Source of the DNA: an uncultured Gammaproteobacteria bacterium
Lineage (GTDB): Bacteria; Pseudomonadota; Gammaproteobacteria; GCA-002705445; GCA-002716945
DNA: 64,000 nucleotides
Assembly: GCA_902535975.1 (NCBI GenBank)
Contig: CACAVP010000001.1
Coordinates: 6,352-70,351, forward strand
Direction: 5' to 3'
Positions 13,346-45,135 of the stretch are shown in pieces; the stretch's first letter is position 1, and each line of letters opens with the position of its first letter. Made by a program: the position numbers and the translations under genes. The notes under the pieces were generated by a model. It was not told the DNA's origin, ran no database searches, and saw only the letters and a list, made by a program, of their open reading frames with translations.

Positions 13346-13352
13346 TATAAAC

Positions 13353-21608: not shown

Positions 21609-22412
21609 CTAATAGGTAAAAAACACTTGATTGTTAGCTATCGTGTAATCATTAATAAGTAATTTCGTACTCTCTGACGATAACCAGTCAAACAATAATT
21701 TTGCTTGAAGATAATTGTTATCAGGGCATTTATCAGGATTGATCAGTATTAAGCCATATGGGTTCTGCATGAGTTTTTTATTGCTGAATAGAACACTATG
21801 ATTTTGTTTATTTGAAAATTTTATCCATGTAGATCTGTCTACAATAGTATAGGCATTAAGTGATATTGCGATATTAAGAGATTGCCCCATTCCTTGACCT
21901 GTTTCAAAGTACCATGATCCACTGAATATGCGCGGATCAATCTTAGCAGCATCCCATATTTTTTTCTCTGCAGCATTCGTCCCACTCGAATCAGCTCGTG
22001 ACACAAAATTTGATTTTTTGGTGTATATTTTTAAAAATGCCTCGTCTGGAGATAAAGATTTTCTGATATCAGCTGGATCATTGCTGGGTCCAACAATAAT
22101 GAAATCATTATACATTAGGATATGTCGTTTGATTCCATACCCTTGTTTCATAAATTGTTTTTCTCTTTTTTCATCATGTACAATCAATAAGTCTCCATCA
22201 CAATTTTTAGAGTTTCTAATAGCTTGACCTGTTCCAACTGCTATAGTCTTTATTACAAGCGAATCATATTTAGGATATTTAGGGAGAAGATATTTATATA
22301 ATCCAGAGTCTCTCGTTGATGTTGTAGACTGAATAATTACCTCACTTGAATGAGAATTCAGAGAGAAGAAAATAATTATTAATAATAGCAAATTATTATA
22401 TCTAATTTTCAT
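21609..22412 (-). CDS. tupA: ABC transporter periplasmic binding protein, tungstate/molybdate TupA-like
   Basis: Signal peptide. TTSTRDSGL motif characteristic of TupA-type oxyanion binders. Confidence 0.55.
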   Translation of the reverse strand: MKIRYNNLLLLIIIFFSLNSHSSEVIIQSTTSTRDSGLYKYLLPKYPKYDSLVIKTIAVGTGQAIRNSKNCDGDLLIVHDEKREKQFMKQGYGIKRHILMYNDFIIVGPSNDPADIRKSLSPDEAFLKIYTKKSNFVSRADSSGTNAAEKKIWDAAKIDPRIFSGSWYFETGQGMGQSLNIAISLNAYTIVDRSTWIKFSNKQNHSVLFSNKKLMQNPYGLILINPDKCPDNNYLQAKLLFDWLSSESTKLLINDYTIANNQVFFTY

Positions 22413-23031
22413 AATGAATCTCGCTATTACTATATAAGTGAATATTACGATGATTTATATTATTTTTTATCCTTGCATCATGAGTAATCATATAAATCTT
22501 TGTATTAGATGCAATAAGGTTAGTTATTATCTTCATTATCATTTCTATATGTTCGCTATCAAGATTATTAGATGGTTCATCATAATATAAAACTTGAGGA
22601 TCTAAAATCAAAGATCTTAATAATGATACAAGCTGTATTTCACCACCTGACAAAGCACGAATTTTTTTCTGCAGGAGATAATCAAGATTATGAGCAGAAA
22701 CCATATTCTCGATTATTTCAGATCTATATTTTGCTTCTATTGATTTACAATAAAGTGCATGGAAAAGATTATTATAAACAGTATTATTCAGAAAAATAGG
22801 ATTTTGAAAGACAAATGCTTTTCTGATATCGCTTTTTTCAAACCTTTCTACTCTACCAGATGTTGGCGTATAAAGACCATACAATATTTTCATCAATGTA
22901 GTCTTACCTACTCCATTATTACCAGTAATTATTGTAAGTGGAGAGTCTTCAATATTTATTGATATATCCTCTAAAATATTAGTCTTGTTCGCTGAATAAA
23001 AAAGTTTTTTTATCTTGAATGAAAAATTCAT
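22402..23031 (-). CDS. tupC: ABC transporter ATP-binding protein (TupC-like)
   Basis: Walker A GNNGVGKTT. LSGGE signature. Walker B. Confidence 0.7.
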   Translation of the reverse strand: MNFSFKIKKLFYSANKTNILEDISINIEDSPLTIITGNNGVGKTTLMKILYGLYTPTSGRVERFEKSDIRKAFVFQNPIFLNNTVYNNLFHALYCKSIEAKYRSEIIENMVSAHNLDYLLQKKIRALSGGEIQLVSLLRSLILDPQVLYYDEPSNNLDSEHIEMIMKIITNLIASNTKIYMITHDARIKNNINHRNIHLYSNSEIHYEN

Positions 23032-23687
23032 AGATAAACTCTCTTAATTAAAAAAATAATGAGATTAATTATTATTGCTATGAAGATAAGCGATAATCCT
23101 AGATACATTGCTAATTCTAGTTCACCACGTGAGGTTTCTAGTACAATACTAGTTGTCATTACCCTGGATATGTTTGATATGTTACCACCAACTATGATTA
23201 CTGCTCCAACTTCTGATAATGCGCGCCCTAGACCTGTCATTGATACTATTACTAAATCAAATCGTGTTTCAAGTATTATGGTATTTATAATCTTTCCTCT
23301 AGATGCATTTAAAGATGACATATATTCACTTATTTCATGAAATTTATTTTCAAAAATAGTATACAGTAATGATGTTATTATTGGTGTGATAATTATGAAC
23401 TGAGCTATTATCATTATTGTCGGGCTGTAGAGAATATCTAGAAATCCCAGAACACCAGAATTAGAAAATATAATATATAGAAACAGACCTACTACTACTG
23501 GAGGAAGACTCATTAATGAGTTCACAATCAATAGAATAAAGCCTTTTCCTCGAAAATTATTTAATAATAAATATGATGACAAAAGAAGAGAGAATAGAAA
23601 TGCGAGGACTGTCGCAAAAACTGAGACATATAATGATAGTTGGATGATTTCAATGTATTCGTTAGTTAAAATACTAAGATAACTCAT
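23028..23687 (-). CDS. tupB: ABC transporter permease (TupB-like)
   Basis: Six hydrophobic helices. EAA-like loop. Overlaps the ATPase gene. Confidence 0.6.
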   Translation of the reverse strand: MSYLSILTNEYIEIIQLSLYVSVFATVLAFLFSLLLSSYLLLNNFRGKGFILLIVNSLMSLPPVVVGLFLYIIFSNSGVLGFLDILYSPTIMIIAQFIIITPIITSLLYTIFENKFHEISEYMSSLNASRGKIINTIILETRFDLVIVSMTGLGRALSEVGAVIIVGGNISNISRVMTTSIVLETSRGELELAMYLGLSLIFIAIIINLIIFLIKRVYL

Positions 23688-23691
23688 GATA

Positions 23692-24405
23692 CTAAATCGG
23701 ATGTTTTAAGTGGTACTTGATCATACTTAGAATATGTATTAATAAATACTTTATAGACTTACTGCTCTCTCTTGCGCCATGATGTTTAACTTCAAATTGA
23801 CTGGTAAGAAGTATTCTCTCATTTGTAGAGTGAACTCTTTTGCATATATCAACATCCTCATAGTAAAGAAAAAACTGTTCATCGAAACCTCCTATATTTC
23901 TAAATAAACTACTCTCGAATAACATGAACATACCTGATATCCAGTCCACATCATAAACTTTCTTTTCACTAAAAGAATATTCGCTTTTCTTTTTAAAAAT
24001 TCTTTTAAAAGGAGTCAGGATAGACGGAAACATTCGTGCGTTGTCATTATGAGATCCATTATTTGTCACACTTATCGGCGATATTAGTTTAGTATTTGTA
24101 GATACTAATATCTTAATAAGTTCATTTATCATATTAGCCTCGATTTGAACATCAGGATTCAAAATTAAAAAATATTTTGAATCTGATAATGAAAACGCAT
24201 AATTATGATTTTCTCCGAATCCTTTAATTTGAGTATTTCTAACGATTAGTACTCTTTTATTATTTGTATATTTCCTTATAATATTTTCATCTTCACTTAC
24301 ATTTATAGTAAGTATGATCCTTACCTCAGTATTATTGATTAGCTCATCCAACAAGTTTTTTATCATCATGAGTTGTTTATGAGATACTATAGAAACCGTG
24401 ATCAT
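23692..24405 (-). CDS. glycosyltransferase family 2 (rhamnosyltransferase-like)
   Basis: GT-A fold with NPD and YYEDVD (DxD) motifs. 237 aa. Confidence 0.65.
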   Translation of the reverse strand: MITVSIVSHKQLMMIKNLLDELINNTEVRIILTINVSEDENIIRKYTNNKRVLIVRNTQIKGFGENHNYAFSLSDSKYFLILNPDVQIEANMINELIKILVSTNTKLISPISVTNNGSHNDNARMFPSILTPFKRIFKKKSEYSFSEKKVYDVDWISGMFMLFESSLFRNIGGFDEQFFLYYEDVDICKRVHSTNERILLTSQFEVKHHGARESSKSIKYLLIHILSMIKYHLKHPI

Positions 24406-25271
24406 CGAATGTAATTATCCTTTTGTAATAATTGATCTACATAATAACGCCAGTCTTTGATTTGTATTTTAGAAATGTTTCTTAATTTATCATTATCCAA
24501 AACACTATAAAGTGGTCTTCTAGCCGCTAAATCAAGCTTATCCGTACTTATTTTACTAATTTTGATAGAATTAGTATCATTGTCTTTCAGTTTATTATAT
24601 ATGTACATTGCAAATTCATACCATGATGTATTGCCGTTAGGAACAACATTATATATTCCAAAACATGTTTTATCATTATTAATGATATCTAAAACTACTT
24701 TTGCAATAAAGTGAGATGATGTTGGCACGCCAAACTGATCATCAACAATTTTTAAATTATTATTGTTATCTATTGATTGGATTATTTTTGCTAAAAAATT
24801 TCCTTCATACTCTGAATATACCCATGATGTTCTAAATATGAAATATTTATCATGATTTTGAATAATATTTAAATCGCCCTGCTGTTTAGAATATCCATAA
24901 TAATTTATAGGATCCATCTCGGAATCCTCTTTGTAAGGATCAATTGATGCACCAGAAAAAACATAATCACTAGAGAAGTGAATTAATACTATTCCTTTAT
25001 CAGAGCAATATTTTGCTAGGAACTCAGGAAGTTTAGCATTTATTTGATAAGACAATTCTTTATTATTTTCAGCTTCATCAACTTTAGTGTAGGCAGCCGC
25101 ATTTATTATCATTTGTGGATTAAAGGATGATACATGATATGTAAGAGCTTTATAATTTAAGAAATTGAAATCTTTTTTTGAACATGATGATAAAACATGG
25201 TTATCATTAGCAATTATTTTTTGAAGATCCTTCCCTATTTGTCCTTGATTTCCCAATAATAATATTTTCAT
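24402..25271 (-). CDS. rfbD: dTDP-4-dehydrorhamnose reductase
   Basis: ILLLGNQGQIGKDL Rossmann fold. RmlD length and YxxxK. Confidence 0.8.
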   Translation of the reverse strand: MKILLLGNQGQIGKDLQKIIANDNHVLSSCSKKDFNFLNYKALTYHVSSFNPQMIINAAAYTKVDEAENNKELSYQINAKLPEFLAKYCSDKGIVLIHFSSDYVFSGASIDPYKEDSEMDPINYYGYSKQQGDLNIIQNHDKYFIFRTSWVYSEYEGNFLAKIIQSIDNNNNLKIVDDQFGVPTSSHFIAKVVLDIINNDKTCFGIYNVVPNGNTSWYEFAMYIYNKLKDNDTNSIKISKISTDKLDLAARRPLYSVLDNDKLRNISKIQIKDWRYYVDQLLQKDNYIR

Positions 25272-26500
25272 ATTTTTGATACATGTATCTTATTAATTTG
25301 AGAAGCAAAAAAAATTATAAGGACAAGAAAGAATACTACTGCTTGATGATGAGTAAATTGAGTTTGTGTCATCATATAACCAAACTGTGAAATCAAAACT
25401 GATAGGCCTGATATACTAAAATAAGACGCTTCGTTATCCAAATGTTTGCTAAAAAATCTATATAATAATAGATAAAAGATCAATAAGCCTATTATCCCAA
25501 TAAAACCTGCTTTAACCCCAATATCTAGGAAATCATTGTGGGGATGATCTCTTGCTTCGATTCTAATATTCCTCTCGAAACTCTTATCTTTAACTATTTT
25601 TTCGAATTTATTAAACCCAACTCCAATTAATTTATTTTCTTTGATAATATCAAAAGCCGTATCAATGAAAAATACTCTTTCTTTAATAGAATTATCTATA
25701 TTTGATATATATACGGTATCGTTTTGAACTAAGTTTGAAATATTCACAGCATATAGTTGGAATTTTGTACTTAATGGAGTAAGAGACAGAATAAAGATTA
25801 AACCTATCATACTTGCAGTATTTTTAAGGGAGATCCTCATCAAGCCTTTATAAAGTAAATATATCAGAAATAATGCTAAACCAATTAATGAACCAACTGT
25901 CATTGAGAAGGACCATGACAATAAAGATGAGATTAACCCAAGAAATATAAATCTTTTACCTATTTTACAGTCTGAAAGTAAAGCACAGATGTTAAGAATA
26001 AATAATGTCATGCATAAATTTCCATACGTAATAGCTGAGCTAGAGACAGGGTTTAATCGATTTGGATAATCTCTATTAATGCGCTGATCAAATGTAATTT
26101 TATCTTCTGAAAGATAATATATTCCAGAAGATAACAGAGATAGTACAGATAAAATGATTATGACTTTGATAAATGTATTTTCATCAAATTTAATAGAGGA
26201 TAACATTAAATAAATTGGCAATAATAAAATTAGTCTTGAATAATTGTCAAATTCGTTTAACTGTGCTGAGTGGTAAATAAGGGCAAAAGCTATAATCAGA
26301 AACAGTTGAACAAAAGGTATAAAGAAATCTTTAGTGTTTCCTAATTTAAGATTACTCCTACTATCATATAAAAAAATCATAGATGAAATTAATAGGAGTA
26401 TTAATAAAAAATTAGCGATTGATCTGTCGATGAAATTGAAAACAAGAAAAGATATAAAAAGAAATGGAACGAGATTATCGGTATATTTTGTAGATAGCAA
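25268..26500 (-). CDS. O-antigen ligase/polymerase family membrane protein (Wzy_C domain)
   Basis: ~10 TM helices. HPHNDFLDIGVKAGFIGIIG loop motif typical of Wzy/WaaL. Confidence 0.6.
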   Translation of the reverse strand: MLSTKYTDNLVPFLFISFLVFNFIDRSIANFLLILLLISSMIFLYDSRSNLKLGNTKDFFIPFVQLFLIIAFALIYHSAQLNEFDNYSRLILLLPIYLMLSSIKFDENTFIKVIIILSVLSLLSSGIYYLSEDKITFDQRINRDYPNRLNPVSSSAITYGNLCMTLFILNICALLSDCKIGKRFIFLGLISSLLSWSFSMTVGSLIGLALFLIYLLYKGLMRISLKNTASMIGLIFILSLTPLSTKFQLYAVNISNLVQNDTVYISNIDNSIKERVFFIDTAFDIIKENKLIGVGFNKFEKIVKDKSFERNIRIEARDHPHNDFLDIGVKAGFIGIIGLLIFYLLLYRFFSKHLDNEASYFSISGLSVLISQFGYMMTQTQFTHHQAVVFFLVLIIFFASQINKIHVSKI

Positions 26501-26502
26501 TT

Positions 26503-28176
26503 CTAGAACAAGCCAACAATGTTGCCGTCATCATCAATATCTATCCGCTCAGCTGCTGGTATTTTTGGCAAACCAGGCATAGTCATTATGTCACCACAGA
26601 CCATAACAATAAATTCAGCTCCAGCAGACAGCCTTACTTCCCTGATTGGTATCTCATGATTATCTGGTGCGCCTCTAAGAGACGGATCAGTGGAGAAGGA
26701 ATACTGCGTCTTGGCCACACATACCGGAAACTCGCCGTATCCATTATTCTGTAATTCCTCGATTTGTTTTTTTACTGAAGCACTTGCTGTTATGCTTGAA
26801 GCGCCATATATTTTTTTAGCAATCGTCTCCATTTTGTCCCATAACGGCATCTCGTCAGGGTATAAGAAATTAAAATTGTTATCTGATGATTCAATGGTTT
26901 CAACTACAGTCTTAGCAAGCTCCTCAGCTCCTTTTCCTCCGTGAGCCCAATGAGTGGAAGATACAATTGGAACATCAAGTTCACTTGATTTTTTCTTAAG
27001 TAATTCTCTCTCTTTATCTGTATCGAAACTAAAGCCATTTATACCAACTACAACAGGTAGACCGTAGTTATTTTTGATGTTATTAACATGTCTTTCTAGG
27101 TTACTCATTCCTTTCTCAAGATAGTCTATGCCCTCCTCATTGAGGTTTTCAAGTGAGCAGCCACCATGATATTTTAAAGCTCTAATGGTAGCAACTAAGA
27201 CTACAGCAGAGGGTTTTAGATCTGCTTTTCTACATTTAATATCTAAAAATTTTTCAGCACCTAAGTCTGCTCCAAACCCAGCTTCAGTAACAACGAAGTC
27301 TGCAAGCTTAAGCGAAGCTTTAGTAGCAATCACAGAATTACAGCCATGCGCAATATTAGCGAAAGGACCTCCATGAATCACAGCAGGGTTATTTTCTAGA
27401 GTTTGTACTAGATTAGGTTTTAAAGCATCTTTAAGTAACACTGTCATCGCGCCGTCAGCGTTAATATCTTTTGCTAAAATTGGCTTTTTATCTCTTGTGT
27501 ATGCTATTACTATTTTGCCTAGCCTATTTTTTAGATCACCTATTGACGTAGCTAGACAAAATATTGCCATTATTTCAGAAGCTACAACTATATCGAATCC
27601 ATCCTGACGCGGATATCCATTACCTATAGATCCCAGAGAGCAAACAGTACTTCTTAAAGCTCTATCATTCATATCAAGAACTCTTTTCCATGATACCCTC
27701 CTTACGTCTATACCAAGTTTATTTCCATGGTGAATGTGATTATCAAGCATAGCTGCAAGAAGATTGTTTGCTAGCTGGATTGCATTGAAATCTCCGGTAA
27801 AATGAAGATTAATATCTTCCATTGGTATAACTTGTGCCATACCCCCGCCTGCTGCACCACCTTTCATACCAAATACAGGCCCTAGTGAAGGCTCTCTGAT
27901 GGTGACAAGCGCTTTCTTACCAATGAGGTTTAAAGCGTCTCCAAGACCTACAGAGGTAGTTGTTTTTCCTTCTCCAGCTGGGGTTGGGCTAATAGCAGTA
28001 ACTAAAATAAGCTTGCCATCAGGTTTATTTCCAAGAGATTTAATATAATCAAGTGATATCTTAGCTTTGTAGTGTCCAAAGGGCTCGAGTGAATCAATTG
28101 GTATATCAAGCTTCTCCGCGATGCTACCGATTCTTTCTGGACTCGCTGCCTGGGCTATTTCAATATCAGATTTCAT
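26503..28176 (-). CDS. fhs: formate--tetrahydrofolate ligase
   Basis: Full-length [17 protein letters not shown]-loop. 557 aa. Confidence 0.9.
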
Positions 28177-28219
28177 TAGAATAATATTAACAGAAAAAAT
28201 AGGCTAATTACAATTAGGT

Positions 28220-29329
28220 CTAATCAATTCCTCTATTATTTATAACTTTTCTCAAGTTATCAGATTTAGAATAAGGGCTATCAACATCATCAATCATCAA
28301 TGGTTTACTCGCTTTAAGATCTTTTAGGATTATAGTTTCATTTACTATCTCACGACACGACAGCTGTCCCTTGACTAATGGAATAGCTAATTTAAAAAGA
28401 TCGTTAAAATTATCACTAGATATTTTTGTACCTTTAGGGATATCTTTCCTCATATAGATTCCTCTCACTAGTTCATCGAGATAAACAGTCTCTCTATTTG
28501 ATATGATGCGCCTCGAGGTGGAATTGCCACCGCAAATTTCTCTTGCTTTTTGGTATGCTTGAAACCACTCATGTATATTATCGGGTATAGAATTATACTT
28601 TGACACCGCTACACCGCCTTCATTAATATCGATATGTCTTTCCCATGTTCTAGCCCCCTTGGCATACGATGCAATCATTGAATTGGTCCAATTATGATAT
28701 TCATGTGATGAGAAACCAATGATGTTATTTGGATATCTCTTTCTAAGATAATCAATTTGATCTAACTCCAATTCGTGATCCTCGGAGGGATATAATGATA
28801 CACAGTGATTCACTGCAAGAGGAATATCTCTTTTATTGAAGTAGTCAACTATATTATCAATATCAAGTTCCGACATACCTCCAGTTGATACTATTGTCGG
28901 TAATTTTTTTGATGCTATTTTCTCAATTAATGGCCAATCATTTGCATCAGAACTTGCAATTTTGATAATTGGATAGCCTAGTTCTTCACATACATCAACA
29001 GATTTCTCATCGAAAGGTGTTGCCATAGCGATACATCCTGAACTTATAATTTTATCAGAGAGCTTTTTATAGCTACTTTTGGAAAGTTTTGTTGAAATTG
29101 TTTTTGAAATGTATCTCGATTTTTTATAGTTTTTATAATCATCATGAATAAAATTGTCAACATCTCTAATCTGCAATTTTATTGCTGCTTTAATTTTGTT
29201 ATAACGAACAACTTTTGAATATTGTGAAATGATGCTCTCACCTCTTTTGATATCACCCAGATGATTGTTAGCTAATTCAAGTACAAAAAGATCTTGGAGA
29301 AGTTCTTTACCTTTATTATGTTTTGACAT
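28220..29329 (-). CDS. NeuB-family nonulosonic/ulosonic acid synthase (PEP-aldose condensing), with C-terminal AFP-like domain
   Basis: LELANNHLGDIKRGESII vs NeuB EIGINHEGSL. ATPFDEKSVD...IKIASSD...PTIVSTGGMS...AVNHCVSLYPSE...IGFSSHE...ERHI. C-terminal KGTKISSDNF SAF domain. Confidence 0.75.
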   Translation of the reverse strand: MSKHNKGKELLQDLFVLELANNHLGDIKRGESIISQYSKVVRYNKIKAAIKLQIRDVDNFIHDDYKNYKKSRYISKTISTKLSKSSYKKLSDKIISSGCIAMATPFDEKSVDVCEELGYPIIKIASSDANDWPLIEKIASKKLPTIVSTGGMSELDIDNIVDYFNKRDIPLAVNHCVSLYPSEDHELELDQIDYLRKRYPNNIIGFSSHEYHNWTNSMIASYAKGARTWERHIDINEGGVAVSKYNSIPDNIHEWFQAYQKAREICGGNSTSRRIISNRETVYLDELVRGIYMRKDIPKGTKISSDNFNDLFKLAIPLVKGQLSCREIVNETIILKDLKASKPLMIDDVDSPYSKSDNLRKVINNRGID

Positions 29330-29431: not shown

Positions 29432-30376
29432 TTAATCATCATCAAAATTAATTCTCTTTTCTTCGATGATTATTGGTCTGTTATTTATATAACGTAATAT
29501 ATGAGCAAGATATTCTCCAATAAATCCAATTACAAGAAATAATGCACCAAATAAGAATGACGTGAGTATGATCAATGGCGCAATACCAGCAGAAAAATCT
29601 GACCAAAAGATTAACTTTTTGAAAAAATAATATATACCTATTAGTATGCTTATAAAACTAATGATAAAACCAAAAAAACTTATGATTCTCAAGGGGACTA
29701 TAGAATTACTAATAATTCCTAACATACCTATGTCATAGAGTGTATAGAGATTATTTTTAGTAACACCCTTCTCTCTCCTATTTTGTGTAAATTCAATTAG
29801 TTTAGGTTTAAATCCTAATTCAGTAATCATTCCTCTCAAGTACGGATATGGATCATTTATTTTCTTAATAATATCTATAAATCTTTTTGAATATATACCA
29901 AAACCAGTAGAGTGATGAATAATGTCGTGTTCTGTAATTTTCTTTAAAAATGTGTAATACAAACCTCGTATTTTATGAAATAAAAAATTTGTTTTAGATC
30001 TAGTTTTCACTCCTAAAACTACCTCATCACCTTTAAGCCAAGCATCTACTAACTCAGGGATTAATTCAGGAGGGTCTTGCATATCAGATGCAAGATATAA
30101 CACAGCGTCTGAATTCGTCTGCATCATGGCCCAATATGGTGATCTTATATGCCCAAAATTTCTTTTATTAAAAATAAGCTTTAGTTTTTTGTCTTTAGAG
30201 GCAAGTTTCTCCAACAAAGATCTAGTATCATCTGTACTGGCGTTATCAATAATCAGCACGTCAATATCAATATCACTAATCTTGGATATATTCTTCTTAA
30301 CTGAAGTATAGAAATCTTGAATTATTTCTGCTTCGTTATAACAAGCTGATACAATTGTAAGTGTTTTATTTGGCAT
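29432..30376 (-). CDS. polyprenyl-phosphate sugar synthase (GtrB/ArnC/DPM1-type GT2 with two C-terminal TM helices)
   Basis: TIVSACYNEAE, DNASTDDT and DMQDPP motifs plus C-terminal hydrophobic hairpin. Confidence 0.75.
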   Translation of the reverse strand: MPNKTLTIVSACYNEAEIIQDFYTSVKKNISKISDIDIDVLIIDNASTDDTRSLLEKLASKDKKLKLIFNKRNFGHIRSPYWAMMQTNSDAVLYLASDMQDPPELIPELVDAWLKGDEVVLGVKTRSKTNFLFHKIRGLYYTFLKKITEHDIIHHSTGFGIYSKRFIDIIKKINDPYPYLRGMITELGFKPKLIEFTQNRREKGVTKNNLYTLYDIGMLGIISNSIVPLRIISFFGFIISFISILIGIYYFFKKLIFWSDFSAGIAPLIILTSFLFGALFLVIGFIGEYLAHILRYINNRPIIIEEKRINFDDD

Positions 30377-31379: not shown

Positions 31380-32598
31380 TTTTTATTTTGATAATACTTC
31401 TAATTGCTAGTGGTAATACAACAACTAATTGCATCCCAAGCAAAGACACAAGTGGCCCGTAAACTCCGTGTGTCTTGATTGTAATAATACTAAACAGTAA
31501 AATAACTAACGAGCTTAAAGAGTTTATTTTGAATAAAGGGTCAACTAAAAATGATCTTGTATAGATGATCAAGCTACCAATTATCTGATTTATTAGTATT
31601 GCGACTGCTAAAATAATCATTAAGTCAAAACTAAGCATCCTACTAGTTAAAACACTCAAGCTCTCCAAATAATAAAATATTGATATTATAACTACACCAG
31701 GTATGTAGATCTGAAATAACTCTCTAATGCTTTTAATATATATTTGATCTAAATTTCTAAGGTTCTTATTTGTTGCTTCTTGAGTCATGTTTGGAATACT
31801 TAAATGTAGCTTAGATGAGGAAATTAATAATATAGTATTGAGCATAGCTAAAGTTAGACCAAATTGTCCTGATAGTTCAACGGAAAGATAAATAAAAATT
31901 ATAAGTATCTGAAATTGTGTGATGATGTAACCGGCAAGCCAAGATATGCCAACGTGGATAACAAATGTCTCTCTGGGTAATTCGATGGAGTGGCTGGATA
32001 ATACTGAATTTAAATAAACATAAAATAGTCTATTATGTTTTTTTATCAAGTAAAGAATTTGCACTATAACAGCAGATATAGAAATCGCAATAGTAGCTAA
32101 GAGTCCAACAAAATATAAAACAACAATAAAAAAAAATATGATTGATGAAACATTCTGTACCAGTTTAATAAAATAAACTTCTCTTATATGTCCAGTCCCC
32201 TGCAAAATAGCAAATATTGGCATCAAAAATAAAAAAATTGAGGAGGTTAAACACAAGAGCAACCATATTGGTATCCAATTATAGGAAAGATTTTGATCTT
32301 GATAAGAGAAGAATATATAACCAATTATAGTAAAAGAAATAAAAAAAAATACACTGGACTTTAAATATTTAGGTGCAGAATATCTTAATAAATCATCACT
32401 ATTACTAATTTTTGATGATGATAGGTGTAAGAGTGATTCAGAATATCCAAAATCAAATAATGTATAAAATCCCACCATTGTTAAAAATGCATAATACCAA
32501 CCCTGCTCATAGATTGTTAGATAGCTTGTAACAAGAAAAAGAAATAGAATTCCTGTAACTGCATGGACTATTCGCTGTATGAGTATAATATTATTCAT
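31372..32598 (-). CDS. polytopic membrane protein, putative Wzx-type flippase
   Basis: ~12 hydrophobic segments. 408 aa. Position within the glycan cluster. No sequence motif verified. Confidence 0.35.
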   Translation of the reverse strand: MNNIILIQRIVHAVTGILFLFLVTSYLTIYEQGWYYAFLTMVGFYTLFDFGYSESLLHLSSSKISNSDDLLRYSAPKYLKSSVFFFISFTIIGYIFFSYQDQNLSYNWIPIWLLLCLTSSIFLFLMPIFAILQGTGHIREVYFIKLVQNVSSIIFFFIVVLYFVGLLATIAISISAVIVQILYLIKKHNRLFYVYLNSVLSSHSIELPRETFVIHVGISWLAGYIITQFQILIIFIYLSVELSGQFGLTLAMLNTILLISSSKLHLSIPNMTQEATNKNLRNLDQIYIKSIRELFQIYIPGVVIISIFYYLESLSVLTSRMLSFDLMIILAVAILINQIIGSLIIYTRSFLVDPLFKINSLSSLVILLFSIITIKTHGVYGPLVSLLGMQLVVVLPLAIRSIIKIKNV

Positions 32599-34390
32599 GA
32601 ACAGGGATTATCATATTCTCCTGAAGCTCTTCTTTGCTCAAAAATGGTGATAAATCCTCTAAAGGTGGTGAAGTTATTGTGCCATCCGGATGCTGCTTGG
32701 CCCCTAATTTAGGTTCGAAGCGTTGATTTGGATCTACAAAGACCTCGAGTATGCCAGACGATTTTTTCAGAAGTTTTTTGACTTCTCTCTCTAATTTACT
32801 TATATCTTTGCATGCTTCGTATTTAAAACCAAATGAGGAAGCAATTTTTCTGAATGACGGAAAAGTGACGCCACTTTTAGGACCAGAGCCAAATTCTTTT
32901 CCATTGAAGAAATTTTTTTGAGTTTGGAACATTGATACATACCCTTTATTGTTAATGATTATTATTTTTATTGGTAGTTGATTTGATTTGATAGTTTCTA
33001 GTTCTTGAAGATTCATCATAATGGAACCATCGCCTGTAATACATACAATGTCTTTCATGCCACTGCTATAGCATGCACCAATTGCCGCAGGTAAATCATA
33101 ACCCATTGTCGCGGACCCTGAGTTAGACCAAACCCTCTGGCCTTTTTTTATTTTAAATGCCTGGTGAGTTGTTACCACGGCCGTACCGTTTGCTGTTATA
33201 ACAATGTCATTATTTTTCATATTATTTGAGAGTATATCGATCAGACAGTACGGATTAATTTGTTTTTTAGGATTATAAAATTCATCCTTTACGACAGGAT
33301 ATTTTATTTTTCTTTTTTTACACCACGTAATCCAATCATTATGAAGCATAAGTTTATTTCGTATTTTCTGAGTTAATCTGGGGAGAAATATATTTAGATT
33401 TTTATGAACTTTTAAGTATGGTTTAACTGTATGTTTATTGAGTTCTGTTTTATCAACATCAACCCAGATAATTTTTGATGCTCTTGCAAACATTTTATAA
33501 TTGTAACTAACTTGTCTTATGTTAAGTCTAGAACCTAATACAAGGAGTAGATCAGAATTTTGAACAGCAAAGTTTCCTGCTCTATCACCAACCGTACCAG
33601 CTTTGCCAATATATAATTTATGGTCTTCCCATATCACATCTTGAGAGTTGAAAGAGGAAACTACTGGAATATTTAATAAATTTACCAGCTTAATGAAGTC
33701 TGCATGTTTACCCGACAATCTTATTCCACTTCCGCAATATATTACAGGCCTCTTTGATTTTTTGATTAGTGAGAGGATTTTTTTTAATTTATTATCAAGT
33801 TCTTTTTTATTTTCTACTATTCTTGGAGGAACATATCTCTTCATCTTTTTTATATCCACCATTGCTGCCTGAATATCCAAGGGTATATCAAGCCAACATG
33901 GTCCTGGTCTGCCAGATTTAGCTAAATAAATTGCTTTTTCAAGATCATATAGAACATCTTTAGCTTTTGTAATCATCTTAGAAAACTTTGTTATTGGTTT
34001 GATAACTGGAATTATATCTAGTTCTTGATCACCTAATTGTCTGAGAGGAACTTTTGAGGCGCTAACAGTTGTCTCTAGTTTTACTTGTCCAGATAGGACG
34101 ATCATTCCAATACTATCGACAAAAGCCCCATAAACGCCAGTTATAGCATTTGTCCCTCCTGGCCCTGATGTGACATTTAGAGCGCAGAGGTTGTTATTAA
34201 GTCTATAAAAAGATTCTGCAGCTATGCTAGATGCTTGCTCATGGTGATTGTAAATTACGTTGAATCTTTCATTTATAGAAAATGAATGATTAAGATGCAT
34301 AGACCCTCCCCCAGTGACTGAAAAACATGTGTTTATCCCATGTTTAGCCAAAGTTGTTACTATAAGGTCACTTACTTTTACAGTTGTCAT
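32591..34390 (-). CDS. thiamine-diphosphate-dependent enzyme, acetolactate-synthase-like (YerE-type sugar branching enzyme candidate)
   Basis: N-terminal TPP_enzyme_N. Central domain. C-terminal GDGS...MNLQELETI TPP-binding motif. Adjacent to ddhA/ddhB. Confidence 0.7.
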   Translation of the reverse strand: MTTVKVSDLIVTTLAKHGINTCFSVTGGGSMHLNHSFSINERFNVIYNHHEQASSIAAESFYRLNNNLCALNVTSGPGGTNAITGVYGAFVDSIGMIVLSGQVKLETTVSASKVPLRQLGDQELDIIPVIKPITKFSKMITKAKDVLYDLEKAIYLAKSGRPGPCWLDIPLDIQAAMVDIKKMKRYVPPRIVENKKELDNKLKKILSLIKKSKRPVIYCGSGIRLSGKHADFIKLVNLLNIPVVSSFNSQDVIWEDHKLYIGKAGTVGDRAGNFAVQNSDLLLVLGSRLNIRQVSYNYKMFARASKIIWVDVDKTELNKHTVKPYLKVHKNLNIFLPRLTQKIRNKLMLHNDWITWCKKRKIKYPVVKDEFYNPKKQINPYCLIDILSNNMKNNDIVITANGTAVVTTHQAFKIKKGQRVWSNSGSATMGYDLPAAIGACYSSGMKDIVCITGDGSIMMNLQELETIKSNQLPIKIIIINNKGYVSMFQTQKNFFNGKEFGSGPKSGVTFPSFRKIASSFGFKYEACKDISKLEREVKKLLKKSSGILEVFVDPNQRFEPKLGAKQHPDGTITSPPLEDLSPFLSKEELQENMIIPVHE

Positions 34391-35424
34391 TTATCTTTGT
34401 TCCATTGGTAGGTTCTCTCTATTGCTTCATTTAAAAATACAGATTGTTGAATACCGCTACAACTAATAATTTTATTATTATCAGGGACATATCTTGAAGT
34501 ATTCCATCCTACATCCTTTTTATCTTCAACTACGTAACTACTATGATATTTTGATGCAATCATATCAGCTAACTTAGATATTGATACGCATTCTTTTGAG
34601 CCAAGATTATATGATCCGCTTGTATTATCATCAACAAGGAGAAATAACATCCATAGTACCAGATCTGTTGGATAGAGATACGAGCGTACAGGCTTACCAT
34701 TTCCTTTTACAACAATTTTTTCTTTTTTTAATGCATTATCTATAAAATTACCTGCAGCAAAATGTATATCAAGAGAAAGCATTGGTCCAAGTAGTGCAAA
34801 TATCCTTGCATTTGCATATTTGAGGTTATATTTTTTACTATATAGTGCAAATAATGATTCAGATGAGCGTTTAGCCTCGGCATATGCATGAAGTGCGTTT
34901 GACGTATCTGGTGCAGATCTCTCTGACTCCTTGATATATTCGATATTACTATCTTGAACGCCATATATTGCCCCAGAGCTGAGGTTCAGTGCTCTGCCAG
35001 TAAATTTTTTCTTTTTTAGTTCTGAAAGAATTCTTTTTGTGCCATCAACTACTACTGAAAACATTTCTATTGGGTCTTTTTCGTTAAGTTCTGCACTTGC
35101 TGATGTTGCACCATGTACTAAGTAATCATAATTACAGTTTAGTGACATCTCTCTTATATCTGATTGGATTACATGAATCGATTGATTAGTAAAATCTATG
35201 TATTTATTTTGATACAATCTTTCTTTATCTCTTGTTAAGACATGTAATGTGTATGAGCAACCTGTCAATTTTTGATAATGAAGGAGGGATGATATTAGCC
35301 ATTTGCCTATGAATCCAGTACATCCGGTTAAAAGAATTTTTTTATTATCAAGTTTTTTCAGATACTTACCACCAACTTCGGTGATGTAATCTAGGTCATC
35401 ATTAATACACCACCTTTTATTCAT
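34387..35424 (-). CDS. NAD(P)-dependent epimerase/dehydratase family protein (extended SDR; sugar nucleotide reductase/epimerase)
   Basis: ILLTGCTGFIGKWL Rossmann fold. YAEAK catalytic motif. Confidence 0.6.
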   Translation of the reverse strand: MNKRWCINDDLDYITEVGGKYLKKLDNKKILLTGCTGFIGKWLISSLLHYQKLTGCSYTLHVLTRDKERLYQNKYIDFTNQSIHVIQSDIREMSLNCNYDYLVHGATSASAELNEKDPIEMFSVVVDGTKRILSELKKKKFTGRALNLSSGAIYGVQDSNIEYIKESERSAPDTSNALHAYAEAKRSSESLFALYSKKYNLKYANARIFALLGPMLSLDIHFAAGNFIDNALKKEKIVVKGNGKPVRSYLYPTDLVLWMLFLLVDDNTSGSYNLGSKECVSISKLADMIASKYHSSYVVEDKKDVGWNTSRYVPDNNKIISCSGIQQSVFLNEAIERTYQWNKDK

Positions 35425-36466
35425 CTAAATATTCGTGTATCTGTTTTTTAGAAAATTCTAACATATCCTTGTTATTCATATATGCTTTGTACCATTCTAC
35501 AGTAGCAGTCAGAGACTTTTCAAAACTCCACTTTGGAATCCAATCTAAATCTCTGCGTGACTTTGTTATATCTAAATAAAGCAACCCTGCCTCGTGATCA
35601 AACTTTTCTCTAGAGATATCATAGTTCAGCTCAGGCAATTCTATTTTCATGTACTCGACTACGTCTCTAACCGTTTTATGTGAGGTTTCATTCGGCCCAA
35701 AATTCCATGAGCCTTGCACATTTTCAACAGAATATAACCTCTCTGCAAGCTCCATATAACCAATAAGTGGTTCTAGTACATGTTGCCATGGTCTTACAGA
35801 GTCTGGATATCTTATCAGTAGCTGCTTATTAGAGATAATTGATCTAAAAATATCTGGTATTAATCTATAATTTGACCAATCTCCGCCTCCAATAACATTA
35901 CCAGCTCTTGCAGTTACTGCCCGAGGAATCTCTTTAAAGAAAGAAGATATGTATGCTGACGTTACGATCTCAGAGCAGGCTTTTGATGCAGAATATGCAT
36001 CATGACCACCAAGCTCGTCTGTTTCTTTATATCCTGTGTTTTTTTCGAGATTCTTATAACATTTATCAGATGTTACATTTACAAAAGCTTTTATATAATC
36101 AAAAGTTCTTACAATTTCGCAGATATTAACACTTCCAATTACATTTGTTTCAAAAGTATTAACCGGATCTTTATATGATTCTTTGACTATGCTTTGTGCG
36201 GCCATATGAAAAATAACTTCCGGTCTGTGCTCCGATACTAAGCTATGCAGATTGTTATAATCTTTAATGTTAGAAATATTACTTTTACAAACAGTATCTA
36301 ATTTATTTGTTTGAAATATCGAAGGCGTTGTATTCGGCTCTAACGATACACCTACTATTTCAGAGCCAAGTTCATTTAAAAGCATGGTTAACCATGAGCC
36401 TTTAAATCCTGTGTGACCAGTTATAAGGACCTTTTTATTTTTCCAAAAGTTAGTCTTTAAAGTCAT
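35417..36466 (-). CDS. rfbG: CDP-glucose 4,6-dehydratase
   Basis: FWKNKKVLITGHTGFKGSWL N-terminus typical of DdhB/RfbG. YSASK. Confidence 0.85.
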   Translation of the reverse strand: MTLKTNFWKNKKVLITGHTGFKGSWLTMLLNELGSEIVGVSLEPNTTPSIFQTNKLDTVCKSNISNIKDYNNLHSLVSEHRPEVIFHMAAQSIVKESYKDPVNTFETNVIGSVNICEIVRTFDYIKAFVNVTSDKCYKNLEKNTGYKETDELGGHDAYSASKACSEIVTSAYISSFFKEIPRAVTARAGNVIGGGDWSNYRLIPDIFRSIISNKQLLIRYPDSVRPWQHVLEPLIGYMELAERLYSVENVQGSWNFGPNETSHKTVRDVVEYMKIELPELNYDISREKFDHEAGLLYLDITKSRRDLDWIPKWSFEKSLTATVEWYKAYMNNKDMLEFSKKQIHEYLDE

Positions 36467-37223
36467 GCCAAGGGAATATTTTCTTAGACTGAGCTAGGTC
36501 ATTCAGATAATTCATGTCTCTCAATGTATCCATCGGTTGCCAGAAAAGTTCATGTTTATAAGCGCTAAGTTCATTTTTATCAGCCAATTTTTCAAGTGGC
36601 TCTCTTTCCCATATAGTCATGTCATTATTAATATAAGAGAATATTTCTGGCTCAAGAACAAAAAAACCTCCGTTTATCCAACCTGATTCTCCAATAGGTT
36701 TTTCAACAAATTTAGTTACAGATCCATTATCTAATGATACAGACCCAAACCTACCTTGTGGTTTAACTACTGTCATTGTTGAGATTTTTTTTGACTCCTT
36801 ATGGTGATCTAATAGTTTATTAATATCGATATTACCTACACCGTCACCATAAGTAAGAAAAAAGGTCCCATCTATATATTTTTTGATTCTTTGAATGCGG
36901 CCACCTGTCATTGTAGTTTCACCTGTATCAACTAACGTGACTCTCCAATTCTCCGAGTTATTTGAATGAACTTCCATCTTATTTTCTTTGAGATTAAATG
37001 TAATATCAGAATTACGAAGCAGAAAGTTAGAAAAATATTCTTTGATAGTATAACCTTTATAGCCACAACAGATTATAAAATCAGACACACCGTAGTAAGA
37101 ATATATCTTCATTACATGCCATAGAATTGGTTTGCCAGCAATCTCCACCATTGGTTTAGGCACTCTTGATGTCTCCTCTGAGAGTCTTGTTCCTAGGCCG
37201 CCAGCAAGAATTACTGCTTTCAT
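36450..37223 (-). CDS. rfbF: glucose-1-phosphate cytidylyltransferase
   Basis: MKAVILAGGLGTRLSEET..PKPMVEIAGKPILWHVMKIYS...FIICCGYKGY almost co-linear with Salmonella RfbF. Confidence 0.9.
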   Translation of the reverse strand: MKAVILAGGLGTRLSEETSRVPKPMVEIAGKPILWHVMKIYSYYGVSDFIICCGYKGYTIKEYFSNFLLRNSDITFNLKENKMEVHSNNSENWRVTLVDTGETTMTGGRIQRIKKYIDGTFFLTYGDGVGNIDINKLLDHHKESKKISTMTVVKPQGRFGSVSLDNGSVTKFVEKPIGESGWINGGFFVLEPEIFSYINNDMTIWEREPLEKLADKNELSAYKHELFWQPMDTLRDMNYLNDLAQSKKIFPWHDFKD

Positions 37224-37255: not shown

Positions 37256-38497
37256 CTAAAGTTTATGAGTAATGCAATAGTTTTTCAAACCTATAATTGT
37301 TGAATCAATAGCACTTGTACATTTCACAACTTTTAAATTTGTATTGTACTCTAATACTTCACAAAATTCAGGAATTTTCACACCAAGTGCACCAGTTACA
37401 TATATTTTTTTAAAATCTTGATAGCGTTTGATATCGTTGACGATAGATATATACTGATTAACAAGTGCCTTTTTTATAGAGTATATATAATCATCGATCT
37501 CGTTGATATTATCAATAGATGTTAAATTCTCATTTTTTTTATAACCATACAATCCTTTTATTATGCTCAGATTAATTTCATATTCATTATCATGATTTAT
37601 GTTATTACTAGTCTTGAATAACTTGTTCCAAAAAATAGAATCAATATTTTCATCAAATAGTGAATCGACATAAGAAGCATATTCATTAAGTACTCTGCCA
37701 CAAGGAATGTGCGTTAATGTATTAATGAATTTTTTATTCGCAAAGGGTCTAATTTCATAAGATAGATTTGGGGAATATTCCATGGAAACCTGAGAGCCTG
37801 TTCCCAGGTTTATGTTTACACTTGAAGACAAGTCAATTGACATTATAGCTGCTTGTAGATCACCTAAACCTCCATATATAGGGATATTTTTTTTTGAATA
37901 ATTTATATATCCAAGTGTTTCACTATATGATGAAACATCGTAAGTAATAATTTCTGTCTCATCCAAACTCTTCATCCAACTATTGTTCCAGATATCAAAT
38001 AATCCAGTGGCAGCAGCAAGATGTATGGATGTTTTATTGCTCCATGAACCATTTAAAAGAATTAAGGCGTCTATAAGTGAAAGGAGATGGCTTTTTTTAT
38101 GAAAATTTTCATGATACTTTAGATTGATTCTTGGTAACCCGACTTTGTCATTAATGCCAGTAATTTTTAACAAGCTGTCGTCTGGGCTTTGTATATTTTT
38201 TTCTTTGTTATGTGATAAATCTGCTCTCCATGATATATACAAATCTTCTTCTAATGGTGGCAAAGATTCAGATAATATAAATCCATGCATTTCAGAGCAT
38301 ATGGCTATTTTGTCAATGTCATGATGATATTCAAGATGTTCATGAAATCTCTCATTTATATACCTTAATGTTACTTTTGATCTTTCATTGAAAAATGTTC
38401 CAGGAGTGCTAAAAATATCTGACAAGACTTTAGTTTCAGAATTAAATAGCGATGATTTTACTCGACTAGCACCAAAGTCTATCAATAATATATTCAC
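37256..38497 (-). CDS. ASKHA-fold putative sugar/cyclitol kinase (hypothetical)
   Basis: N-terminal LLIDFGASRVK resembles the phosphate-1 motif of the actin-like ATPase/sugar kinase superfamily. Overlaps the DHQS-like gene by 4 nt. Confidence 0.3.
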   Translation of the reverse strand: MNILLIDFGASRVKSSLFNSETKVLSDIFSTPGTFFNERSKVTLRYINERFHEHLEYHHDIDKIAICSEMHGFILSESLPPLEEDLYISWRADLSHNKEKNIQSPDDSLLKITGINDKVGLPRINLKYHENFHKKSHLLSLIDALILLNGSWSNKTSIHLAAATGLFDIWNNSWMKSLDETEIITYDVSSYSETLGYINYSKKNIPIYGGLGDLQAAIMSIDLSSSVNINLGTGSQVSMEYSPNLSYEIRPFANKKFINTLTHIPCGRVLNEYASYVDSLFDENIDSIFWNKLFKTSNNINHDNEYEINLSIIKGLYGYKKNENLTSIDNINEIDDYIYSIKKALVNQYISIVNDIKRYQDFKKIYVTGALGVKIPEFCEVLEYNTNLKVVKCTSAIDSTIIGLKNYCITHKL

Positions 38498-39669: not shown

Positions 39670-40330
39670 CTGCTATAAATCCACCATCGATAGTAATATC
39701 TTGGCCAGTTAGATACGATGCTTTTTCACTACATAGGTAAAGCGCCATGTTACTTATGTCTTTAACATTTCCTAGTCTCTTCAAAGGTATTCGTGTTTCC
39801 AGTTTTACGATATCTTCTTTTGGAAGATTATTTCTTGTAAGTTTAGTATCAATAAAACCAGGAGTAATTGAGTTTACACGGATATCGTATTGACTAAGTT
39901 CTAAAGCAAGGTTTTTCATTACACCTTGTAACGCATGCTTTGATACAGAATACGGAAATCTACCAACTCTTCCATAGCTCGAATAAAGTGAGGAAATTAT
40001 AACTATCGATGATGATTTGGATAATAAATTCTTTGTTATCAAGTAATGGACTATCTTTACAAATGACATAAAGTTAATATTGATTGATTTAAGTATTCTT
40101 TCAATATCATCAGATTCAAAATGATTCAATTTATTATCTGCAGCACAAAAAATTAAGTTGTCATAAACAGTTACAATTGATTGAAGATATTTATCAACAG
40201 AGTCTTTTGAAGATAAATCTAAATCTGATCTTGTTGTTGCGATAACATTACTTGTTTTTGAAAATTCATCAGAAATAGACGTCCCAATATCGCCATTTCC
40301 TGAAATTATAAGAGTATTTTTCATGCTCAT
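39647..40330 (-). CDS. short-chain dehydrogenase/reductase (classical SDR)
   Basis: IISGNGDIG glycine motif. YSVSK catalytic motif. 227 aa. Confidence 0.7.
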   Translation of the reverse strand: MSMKNTLIISGNGDIGTSISDEFSKTSNVIATTRSDLDLSSKDSVDKYLQSIVTVYDNLIFCAADNKLNHFESDDIERILKSININFMSFVKIVHYLITKNLLSKSSSIVIISSLYSSYGRVGRFPYSVSKHALQGVMKNLALELSQYDIRVNSITPGFIDTKLTRNNLPKEDIVKLETRIPLKRLGNVKDISNMALYLCSEKASYLTGQDITIDGGFIAGGFFENN

Positions 40331-45095: not shown

Positions 45096-45135
45096 AGTTA
45101 TCTAAGTAAAATCTAAATGTAAAAATTTTTTTATT

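Follow-up and report, generated by a model that had tools for sequence, protein, structure and literature searches.

Erwiniose, caryophyllose and 'gastriose' are acyl-branched sugars that are formed in three steps (Steitz et al. 2022, PMC9306805). The first enzyme is a pyruvate aldolase (ErwI, MMAR_2331 or MygI), which produces a 4-hydroxy-2-oxo acid. A YerE-like thiamine diphosphate (ThDP)-dependent enzyme then couples this acid to CDP-4-keto-3,6-dideoxy-D-glucose, and a YerF-like reductase completes the branch (PMC9306805). JanthE of Janthinobacterium sp. HH01 (Protein Data Bank (PDB) entry 8rph) is a YerE-like, ketone-accepting carboligase, which takes pyruvate as a donor as well as long and 4-hydroxy-2-oxo acids, and for which the physiological substrates reportedly still await identification (PMC12188165). 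Here we analyse a stretch of 64,000 nucleotides (the window; positions 6,352 to 70,351 of contig CACAVP010000001.1) of an uncultured gammaproteobacterium. In this window a gene for a 369-amino-acid NeuB-like protein lies beside fhs, the gene of formate-tetrahydrofolate ligase, in a glycan island that also encodes a JanthE/YerE-like carboligase and enzymes of CDP-hexose synthesis (Table 1). The joint explanation that we consider best, and hold with about even confidence, is that fhs is a core gene trapped in the island and that the NeuB-like enzyme is a phosphoenolpyruvate (PEP)-dependent donor synthase for an acyl-branched CDP-sugar.

The NeuB-like gene, described as an orphan synthase in the initial annotation, is a member of a widespread subfamily tied to JanthE/YerE-like ThDP carboligases and CDP-hexose genes, and both of these are present in the window island. 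The neighbourhoods were sampled at the 80 best genome loci with flanks of 10 kb, of which 56 have at least 5 kb on each side. Neighbours were counted first by clustering of called open reading frames (ORFs) and then by tblastn, which is more robust and gives the figures used here. In 51 of the 56 loci a homologue of the window ThDP enzyme is encoded no more than 5 kb from the NeuB-like gene, in 21 of them adjacent to it, and its gene is present in 67 of all 80. Within 10 kb there is a glucose-1-phosphate cytidylyltransferase in 48/56 loci, a CDP-glucose 4,6-dehydratase in 45/56, a homologue of the extended short-chain dehydrogenase/reductase (SDR) of the window in 44/56 (adjacent in 15), an FkbM methyltransferase in 33/56 and an ArnC-like family 2 glycosyltransferase (GT2) in 25/56; a GtrA cluster is found in 17 loci by ORF clustering. 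A DegT-family protein is encoded within the same distance in 46/56 loci, and its representative is RfbH, the E1 component of CDP-4-keto-6-deoxyglucose 3-dehydrase (NF011936, 731 bits against 423). Pyruvate aldolases, searched by tblastn with E. coli MhpE, MhpF and YfaU, occur in 0/80 loci, and the class II pyruvate aldolase families of Pfam are likewise absent from the window island. The related loci hold the elements of the published scheme, with a candidate only for the YerF-like reductase, except the pyruvate aldolase, and a NeuB-fold synthase stands in its place. We found no link between NeuB-type genes and YerE-like enzymes in the accessible literature.

Homologues of the NeuB-like protein that are 55-64% identical to it are spread across Pseudomonadota, Actinomycetota, Bacteroidota, Acidobacteriota, Myxococcota, Saccharibacteria and Elusimicrobiota, and two subfamily-specific peptide motifs retrieve at least 578 relatives among species-representative genomes. 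Single-amplified genomes of Pelagibacteraceae are among its nearest named genome matches (top identities 63-64%). An origin from SAR11, considered in view of these matches, the low GC and TARA scaffolds, was rejected because fhs and the flanks colinear with the window point to Gammaproteobacteria, as described below. The plasmid collection, searched at the protein level, contains no homologue at 1e-40, and an exact-sequence look-up gave no match for the window NeuB-like protein or for the fhs cluster representative P0241, which is 100% identical to the window fhs.

The fold of the protein is that of NeuB. It matches Pfam NeuB (PF03102) with 126.4 bits against a gathering score of 22.1. Among solved structures, 3g8r is the closest in sequence (E 2e-55, residues 10-348), and Neisseria meningitidis NeuB (NmNeuB) is found at E 1e-21. 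The AlphaFold model (pLDDT 90) superposes on 3g8r with a TMq of 0.78 and on full-length NmNeuB with 0.77-0.78 across 345 columns, thus the C-terminal antifreeze-like domain is present, as the initial annotation had stated. Pfam SAF has no significant match in the window protein, and SAF (PF08666) is present in some of its homologues. In the fold search the next structural neighbours of the model are the barrels of DAHPS and KDO8PS, the synthases of 3-deoxy-D-arabino-heptulosonate 7-phosphate (DAHP) and of 3-deoxy-D-manno-octulosonate 8-phosphate, and no extra nucleotide-binding domain is seen.

The entry 3g8r is a structural-genomics structure of a 'probable spore coat polysaccharide biosynthesis protein E' of Chromobacterium violaceum. 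It is the nearest solved structure over the full length; however, it is only 31% identical to the window protein and has ASCSFTDW and STHEDPD where the subfamily has ASSDxNDW and S[TS]HEYH[DN]W. With this identity and without the subfamily motifs, 3g8r falls into a sister group of the NeuB-like subfamily. In the literature found, it appears as one among listed published structures used for AlphaFold2 homology modelling.

The catalytic machinery is kept. In NmNeuB we take E25, K53, Q55, K129, S132, S154, Y186, S213, H215, E234 and H236 to be the metal, PEP and catalytic residues. Their counterparts in the window protein are E18, K51, Q53, K123, S126, S148, Y180, S207, H209, E230 and H232, of which H209 and H232 are the metal ligands. 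All of these positions are invariant in an alignment of 18 sequences (A1, the window protein and 17 homologues). The residues of NmNeuB that presumably contact the aldose (N-acetylmannosamine, ManNAc) are E134, N184, Y138 and D247 together with R314 of the partner subunit. In the window protein E134 is replaced by D128, N184 by S178, Y138 by W132 and D247 by V240, and these replacements are invariant or near-invariant across the family; the mapping follows the sequence alignment with NmNeuB and covers these four positions, the region of R314 falling outside the aligned part. The data support a NeuB-fold enzyme of the PEP-condensing type, as initially annotated, with a putatively remodelled aldose pocket. 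We infer that it would make a 3-deoxy-2-ulosonic (4-hydroxy-2-oxo) acid from PEP. As substrates, ManNAc and diacetamido sugars are very unlikely, which agrees with the earlier doubt about them.

The protein is therefore similar to NeuB, PseI and LegI in its two-domain architecture of a TIM barrel and an antifreeze-like domain (TM 0.73-0.78) and in its metal ligands and PEP and catalytic residues. It differs from them in being 22-23% identical, in scoring far under the NCBIfam equivalog cut-offs (PseI TIGR03586, 114.4 bits against 340.25; NeuB TIGR03569, 109.2 against 399.65) and in its partners, which are a ThDP enzyme and CDP-hexose genes, with no NeuA, NeuC, Pse or Leg genes nearby. We scanned every ORF of at least 100 amino acids between 19.7 and 60 kb with Pfam and/or NCBIfam, and found among them no NeuA-type CMP-transferase, NeuC/PseG, DegT aminotransferase, N-acetyltransferase or formyltransferase, so that the absences listed in the initial annotation stand. 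A conventional synthase for ulosonic or nonulosonic acids (Kdn-, Leg-, Pse- or Neu-like), with the CMP-transferase and the other pathway genes encoded elsewhere, would share the fold and the conserved catalytic residues; the window is only 64 kb of the genome, and a few loci are without the ThDP partner. We consider this very improbable. The equivalog scores and the altered aldose pocket speak against it, the ThDP enzyme is consistently near the NeuB-like gene, and the DegT-family neighbours are dehydrases of the RfbH type, not aminotransferases. Tblastn with E. coli KdsB, a search weakly sensitive to NeuA-type proteins, finds a KdsB-type cytidylyltransferase in 0/80 loci, and in the window neither E. 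coli KdsB nor an RfbH/DegT representative gives a significant match.

The ThDP enzyme of the window has JanthE as its best structural relative (8rph, 8rpi, 8rpj), with 418 bits over the full length, followed by 5ahk with 266 bits and plant acetolactate synthases with about 230. We take 5ahk to be PpYerE; its PDB annotation is acetolactate synthase II large subunit. JanthE differs in its ThDP motif, which is CDG where the window enzyme has GDG. A ThDP gene beside the NeuB-like gene in a Janthinobacterium lividum metagenome-assembled genome (locus L056, 1478-3310) was considered as JanthE itself and was rejected, since it scores 335 bits and has the canonical GDG, not CDG. Janthinobacterium may thus carry two different YerE-like enzymes.

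Compared with the published scheme, the window has the CDP-glucose synthase, the 4,6-dehydratase, a YerE-like ThDP enzyme and SDRs. The dehydratase forms CDP-4-keto-6-deoxy-D-glucose, the predicted acceptor, and the extended SDR next to the ThDP gene is a candidate for the YerF-like reductase or for an epimerase acting on the branched CDP-sugar. The related loci mostly have RfbH/E1 in addition, and a C-C-forming enzyme for the 4-hydroxy-2-oxo acid is encoded beside the carboligase, as in the scheme. The differences are that a NeuB-fold synthase occupies the aldolase slot, with BphI/ErwI- or HpcH/MMAR_2331-type aldolase genes in none of the 80 loci, that the window is without E1 (RfbH/DdhC), and that some NeuB-like loci add an FGGY kinase, a 3-dehydroquinate-synthase-like (DHQS-like) protein, an SDR or a haloacid dehalogenase (HAD) phosphatase. 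By analogy, we suggest that the NeuB-like acid would be the acyl donor for C4-branching of a CDP-4-keto-6-deoxyhexose in a PEP-dependent variant of the yersiniose/erwiniose/caryophyllose scheme. The activation route, which the initial annotation had found unclear, ceases to be a problem if the product serves as a free 2-oxo acid donor and not as a CMP-sugar.

The proposed pathway begins with glucose 1-phosphate, which would be converted to CDP-glucose and then to CDP-4-keto-6-deoxyglucose by the two enzymes that are assigned at equivalog level. The NeuB-like enzyme would condense PEP with an aldehyde to give the 3-deoxy-2-ulosonic acid, and would thereby take the role of the class II pyruvate aldolases (ErwI, MMAR_2331) in the published 'unifying scheme'.

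The acid might then be tailored, and this part is speculative, by the FGGY kinase, the DHQS-like enzyme and the SDR, with phosphorylation, NAD-dependent phosphate elimination and keto-reduction leading to an omega-deoxy chain.

Next, if it acts like YerE, ErwE and MMAR_2332, the ThDP enzyme would decarboxylate the acid and attach the resulting acyl-anion equivalent at C4 of the CDP-keto sugar, and an SDR would reduce the ketone of the side chain. Finally, the GT2, GtrA and the GT-C protein would carry the acyl-branched sugar via undecaprenyl phosphate to a surface glycan. For the GT2 we predict transfer of the sugar to undecaprenyl phosphate, and for the GT-C protein the role of periplasmic transferase of the lipid-linked sugar. 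This trio, encoded together in one island, resembles the GtrA/GtrB/GtrC and ArnC/ArnT-type systems; unlike in those systems, a branched sugar linked to CDP would serve as donor instead of UDP-glucose or UDP-Ara4FN (the formylated 4-amino-4-deoxyarabinose donor), and all three island proteins are below the equivalog cut-offs.

The CDP-hexose genes accompany the NeuB-like gene at almost the same frequency as the ThDP enzyme (45-48/56 against 51/56), and they are retained in loci without the ThDP enzyme, among them L009, L069 and L074. This would also fit a NeuB-like enzyme that lets PEP attack the C4 carbonyl of CDP-4-keto-6-deoxyhexose directly, giving a three-carbon 2-oxo-acid branch for subsequent decarboxylation or extension by the ThDP enzyme. 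Such a branch resembles that of shewanellose, which is 4-C-(3-carboxamide-2,2-dihydroxypropyl); the biosynthesis of shewanellose is not discussed in the literature found. We regard direct addition as distinctly unlikely. To our knowledge, no enzyme of the NeuB, KDO8PS or DAHPS type uses a ketone or a nucleotide-sugar electrophile, and the model shows no additional domain for binding a nucleotide. Moreover, HAD phosphatase, FGGY kinase and DHQS-like genes adjoin the NeuB-like gene in some loci, which implies free sugar-acid phosphate intermediates.

It is also conceivable that the two enzymes form a two-carbon extension pair, in which an aldehyde receives PEP and the 2-oxo acid is then simply decarboxylated to a 2-deoxy-aldose that enters the glycan apart from the CDP-sugar. 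The adjacency of the two genes in 21/56 loci fits this, and ThDP enzymes of the decarboxylase superfamily are commonly plain 2-oxo acid decarboxylases. However, the nearest characterised relatives of the window enzyme are ketone-accepting carboligases, JanthE and then the YerE type, genes forming the CDP-4-keto sugar co-occur in 80-86% of loci, and no separate enzyme for activation of a 2-deoxy-aldose is apparent. A pair of this kind seems to us quite improbable.

The tailoring genes form a cassette of their own. The DHQS-like and FGGY genes travel with the NeuB-like gene in the window and in 8/80 loci, and the FabG-like SDR accompanies them in seven of these eight (L009, L008, L018, L011, L013, L032 and L037; not in the short contig L026). 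The operon of L011 is compact and resembles that of Elusimicrobium simillimum (L176), where the order is glucose-1-phosphate cytidylyltransferase, 4,6-dehydratase, RfbH-like, epimerase, SDR, DHQS-like, FGGY, NeuB-like, ThDP enzyme, an 835-amino-acid protein, GtrA and GT2, with the FGGY and NeuB-like genes adjacent. This locus is one of three found through distant FGGY homologues, in all of which the SDR, DHQS-like and FGGY run is within one gene of the NeuB-like gene. In L175 (DegT, NeuB-like, ThDP enzyme, SDR, DHQS-like, FGGY) the ThDP gene separates them, and in a contig of the European Nucleotide Archive (ENA; SDR, DHQS-like, FGGY, HAD, NeuB-like, PMT_2) the HAD gene does. Most homologues of the 413-amino-acid kinase carry PF00370, and some are named pentulose/hexulose kinase or sedoheptulokinase; the protein itself has no sequence match in the PDB.

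The DHQS-like protein has true 3-dehydroquinate (DHQ) synthases as its best PDB matches (about 1e-41), and alignment with E. coli AroB shows that the AroB motifs are kept in proteins of this type. These include Lys, Arg and Asn, which we take to be binders of the DAHP carboxylate and phosphate. Together this suggests a DAHP-like substrate, as the phosphorylated product of the NeuB-like enzyme would be. The pairing of a PEP-dependent aldol-type synthase with an AroB-like NAD/metal enzyme recalls DAHP synthase and DHQ synthase of the shikimate pathway. It differs from that pathway in that the synthase is of the NeuB type, not of the AroG/AroF or KdsA type, that the AroB-like protein is below the aroB cut-off, and that the setting is one of glycan genes with a kinase and an SDR in addition.

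One attractive, speculative reading is that terminal phosphorylation, phosphate elimination by the DHQS-like enzyme and ketone reduction by the SDR lead to 3,7-dideoxyheptulosonate. From retro-analysis of the systematic name, this acid is presumably the expected donor for the 1,3,4,5-tetrahydroxyhexyl side chain of caryophyllose. Extended to a novel route, the NeuB-fold synthase with the DHQS-like, FGGY and SDR proteins would make a tailored 3-deoxy-2-ulosonic acid, for which 3,7-dideoxyheptulosonate is the candidate, by chemistry of the DAHP type, taken over from the shikimate pathway. An enzyme of the JanthE type would then graft it onto CDP-4-keto-6-deoxyhexose, and higher-carbon branched or carbocyclic sugars would result. 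This complete route is a tentative proposal, and we think it rather unlikely in all its parts.

The same cassette can be read otherwise, as making a carbocyclic (quinate/dehydroquinate-like) or cyclitol carboxylic acid together with the NeuB-like enzyme, with the ThDP enzyme separately forming a yersiniose-type acetyl branch from pyruvate, a donor that JanthE accepts and ErwE rejects. Retention of the AroB catalytic and substrate motifs is consistent with this, as are the runs of SDR, DHQS-like, FGGY, in part HAD, and NeuB-like genes without a nearby ThDP gene in L009, L013 and the ENA contig. However, the DHQS-like gene is present in only 8/80 loci against 67/80 for the ThDP enzyme, therefore such a carbocycle cannot be the general role of the subfamily, and no enzyme for activation or attachment of the acid is evident. 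We judge this reading quite improbable too.

Several observations weigh against the NeuB-like enzyme as donor synthase for the branched CDP-sugar. Since JanthE accepts pyruvate, the ThDP step is not strictly dependent on the NeuB-like product, and the window ThDP enzyme may not need it. The ThDP enzyme of L056, encoded directly downstream of the NeuB-like gene, is a distant relative of JanthE. With no RfbH/E1 in the window, the acceptor would differ from the published one and keep its 3-OH; RfbH/E1 may be encoded beyond the 64 kb. In five of the 56 loci the 10-kb flanks hold no ThDP gene. The run of SDR, DHQS-like, FGGY, HAD and NeuB-like genes stops at core genes (queA, tgt, secD) in L009 and L013, and the ENA contig likewise has the cassette and the NeuB-like gene with no nearby ThDP enzyme, so a ThDP-independent fate of the NeuB-like product is conceivable as well. 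Finally, if the DHQS-like enzyme carried out the full DHQ-type cyclisation, no 2-oxo acid and hence no donor for the ThDP enzyme would be formed.

The neighbouring fhs gene is an ordinary core gene of C1 metabolism, trapped between two island insertions and outside the sugar module. We compared the window with three island-less relatives, a 996-kb ENA contig (L171), GCA_016777025.1 (L172) and GCA_016779485.1 (L173), in which fhs is 88% identical to that of the window and the gene order is colinear with the window flanks. The order runs from fabH ... uvrC, pgsA, Bac_transf, a 253-amino-acid gene, a gmhA-like SIS gene and fhs, and it continues with tupB-like, tupC-like, tupA-like, photolyase-related and DCC1-like genes ... 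holB, tmk ... fabF; L173 starts at the 253-amino-acid gene and shows the order only from there to fabF. The initial annotation had named the place of fhs in island-less relatives as a check, and synteny with the tup genes as the outcome that would speak against a link with the island; in all three relatives fhs is syntenic with the tup-like genes. In this uncultured low-GC marine gammaproteobacterial lineage fhs ancestrally has a gmhA-like gene on one side and a tup-like ABC transporter on the other. Tblastn finds fhs in 0/80 of the other NeuB-like loci. Together with the synteny, this sets aside the earlier idea that fhs serves N-formyl sugars here.

Homologues of the window fhs are very many in marine metagenomes, and all 120 matches listed are 87-90% identical; the named ones among the matches listed are metagenome-assembled genomes labelled Gammaproteobacteria, where fhs and its colinear flanks match at 88-89%. 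Two further contigs have fhs 85-89% identical to the window gene. In MDSZ01174546.1 (L089) the tupB-like and tupC-like genes follow directly after fhs with nothing inserted, and in MDSZ01235396.1 (L088) fhs is flanked by other glycan genes (Wzy, UDP-glucose dehydrogenase, GT1, GT4). These differences in gene content indicate that both flanks of fhs are hot spots of recombination or insertion in this lineage. Gene-wise, the GC content at third codon positions (GC3) is 0.17-0.35 throughout and the GC content of fhs is 0.397, the latter being high owing to protein conservation; GC and GC3 by gene mark fhs neither as foreign nor as native. Between 23 and 31 kb, promoter and terminator scans counted just as many sites as expected from shuffling and are thus uninformative on operon structure.

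The 'tup' genes of the window (21609-23687, minus strand) score well under the equivalog cut-offs (TupA 195 against 400, TupB 130 against 320), which makes the tungstate assignment tentative, and the tup-like permease fits the generic ABC_perm1 subfamily. In L171, uvrC is called in three pieces (4577-6357) and the tupC-like and tupA-like genes are called as fused (12410-13819); both are probably frameshift errors of long-read assembly, not biology.

In five loci of Pseudomonas, Zoogloea and Acidovorax (L044, L052, L053, L057 and L070) the NeuB-like/ThDP/CDP-hexose module adjoins fliD and fliS and also neighbours glycosyltransferase-like proteins of about 1200 amino acids. Its place beside fliD and fliS suggests flagellin glycosylation islands, with the predicted branched sugar on flagellin. 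Culturable carriers with this placement include P. putida 31303, P. guariconensis, Zoogloea oryzae NBRC 102407 and Acidovorax sp. SDU_ACID1.

If the proposed role is true, a function is predicted for a highly conserved NeuB subfamily with relatives in at least 578 species-level genomes of many phyla, whose members are routinely given the wrong names 'sialic acid synthase SpsE' or 'N-acetylneuraminate synthase'. The role would further provide a candidate physiological donor for ThDP carboligases of the JanthE type, which are of interest for chiral tertiary alcohols, and widen the acyl-branched 'unifying scheme' from pyruvate aldolases to PEP-dependent synthases. Unusual branched sugars would then be predicted for abundant marine bacteria, in their hypervariable islands of surface-glycan genes, and for islands of flagellin glycosylation. 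Were the novel route true, caryophyllose-like sugars would be expected on the surfaces of marine bacterioplankton and on flagellins of Pseudomonas, Zoogloea and Acidovorax, and the sister-group structure 3g8r would possibly gain a predicted function too. We note that NeuB homologues in metagenomes are no safe basis for inferring sialic-acid-like surface sugars, and the case of fhs cautions that adjacency in a hypervariable island is no evidence of a functional link.

The coordinates of the island genes are collected in Table 1. The glucose-1-phosphate cytidylyltransferase, the CDP-glucose 4,6-dehydratase, the ThDP enzyme, the DHQS-like protein, the FGGY kinase and the SDRs had passed unremarked in the initial annotation.

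Table 1. Positions in the window of fhs, the NeuB-like gene, the associated island genes and the two insertions (scores in bits, second value the model cut-off; L089 and L171-L173 as in the text)
Feature	Position	Strand or place	Basis and remarks
Insertion 2, about 2.8 kb (GT2, RmlD, Wzy-like)	23688-26502	between fhs and tupB-like	absent in L089, L171, L172, L173
Formate-tetrahydrofolate ligase (fhs), 557 aa	26503-28176	(-)	Pfam FTHFS 883; NF010030 909.4 against 652, residues 1-557
Insertion 1, about 28.8 kb, strain-specific glycan genes	28177-57018	between gmhA-like and fhs	absent in L171, L172, L173
NeuB-like PEP-dependent synthase (predicted), 369 aa	28220-29329	(-)	NeuB domain, model, active-site mapping, neighbourhood counts
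GT2 polyprenyl-phosphate glycosyltransferase (ArnC/GtrB/PgfS-like)	29432-30376	(-)	Glycos_transf_2 84; PgfS 146 and ArnC 95, both below cut-off
ThDP-dependent carboligase, JanthE/YerE-like, 599 aa, GDG motif	32591-34390	(-)	three TPP-enzyme Pfam domains
Extended SDR (epimerase/dehydratase family)	34387-35424	(-)	Pfam Epimerase 109; no equivalog match
CDP-glucose 4,6-dehydratase	35417-36466	(-)	TIGR02622 452 against 278
Glucose-1-phosphate cytidylyltransferase	36450-37223	(-)	TIGR02623 401 against 300
Divergent FGGY-family sugar kinase, 413 aa	37256-38497	(-)	weak Pfam FGGY_N match; homologues PF00370
DHQS-like protein (AroB paralogue, 'sugar phosphate phospholyase' type)	38494-39669	(-)	TIGR04425 296.4 against 400; aroB TIGR01357 260.9 against 305
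Classical SDR, FabG-like	39647-40330	(-)	adh_short_C2 129
GtrA-family small membrane protein, putative undecaprenyl-phosphate-sugar flippase	40345-40755	(-)	PF04138 60
GT-C type (PMT_2) membrane glycosyltransferase, 676 aa	40854-42884	(-)	PF13231 36.6 against 26.1

Beyond the GT-C gene lies the stretch of lowest GC in the window (42932-48031, 0.26-0.30 per gene). It contains a 605-amino-acid ORF (42932-44749, minus strand) with no match in Pfam or NCBIfam, and two plus-strand ORFs of 462 and 505 amino acids with weak methyltransferase-like and sulfatase-like matches.

A second nucleotide-sugar module follows (48028-53983 and 57019-57618, both on the minus strand), which resembles a GDP-(6-deoxy)heptose pathway. 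It comprises an HddC-like guanylyltransferase (188 against 300), an fcl-like reductase (257 against 500), an HddA-like kinase (294 against 600) and a gmd-like 4,6-dehydratase, with its own GtrA and its own GT2. The gmhA-like gene that it would need is a core gene, present in the island-less relatives too. At 49773-50876 there is an unusual protein with the plant 'reversibly glycosylated polypeptide' domain (RGP, PF03214).

Rfam finds only five tRNAs in the window. A tRNA-Leu(taa) at 58437-58520 lies between a 270-amino-acid gene and the Bac_transf initiating transferase, and tRNA-Cys and tRNA-Gly (59955-60106, minus strand) separate Bac_transf from pgsA, where the glycan region has its far edge; all three are possible integration landmarks.

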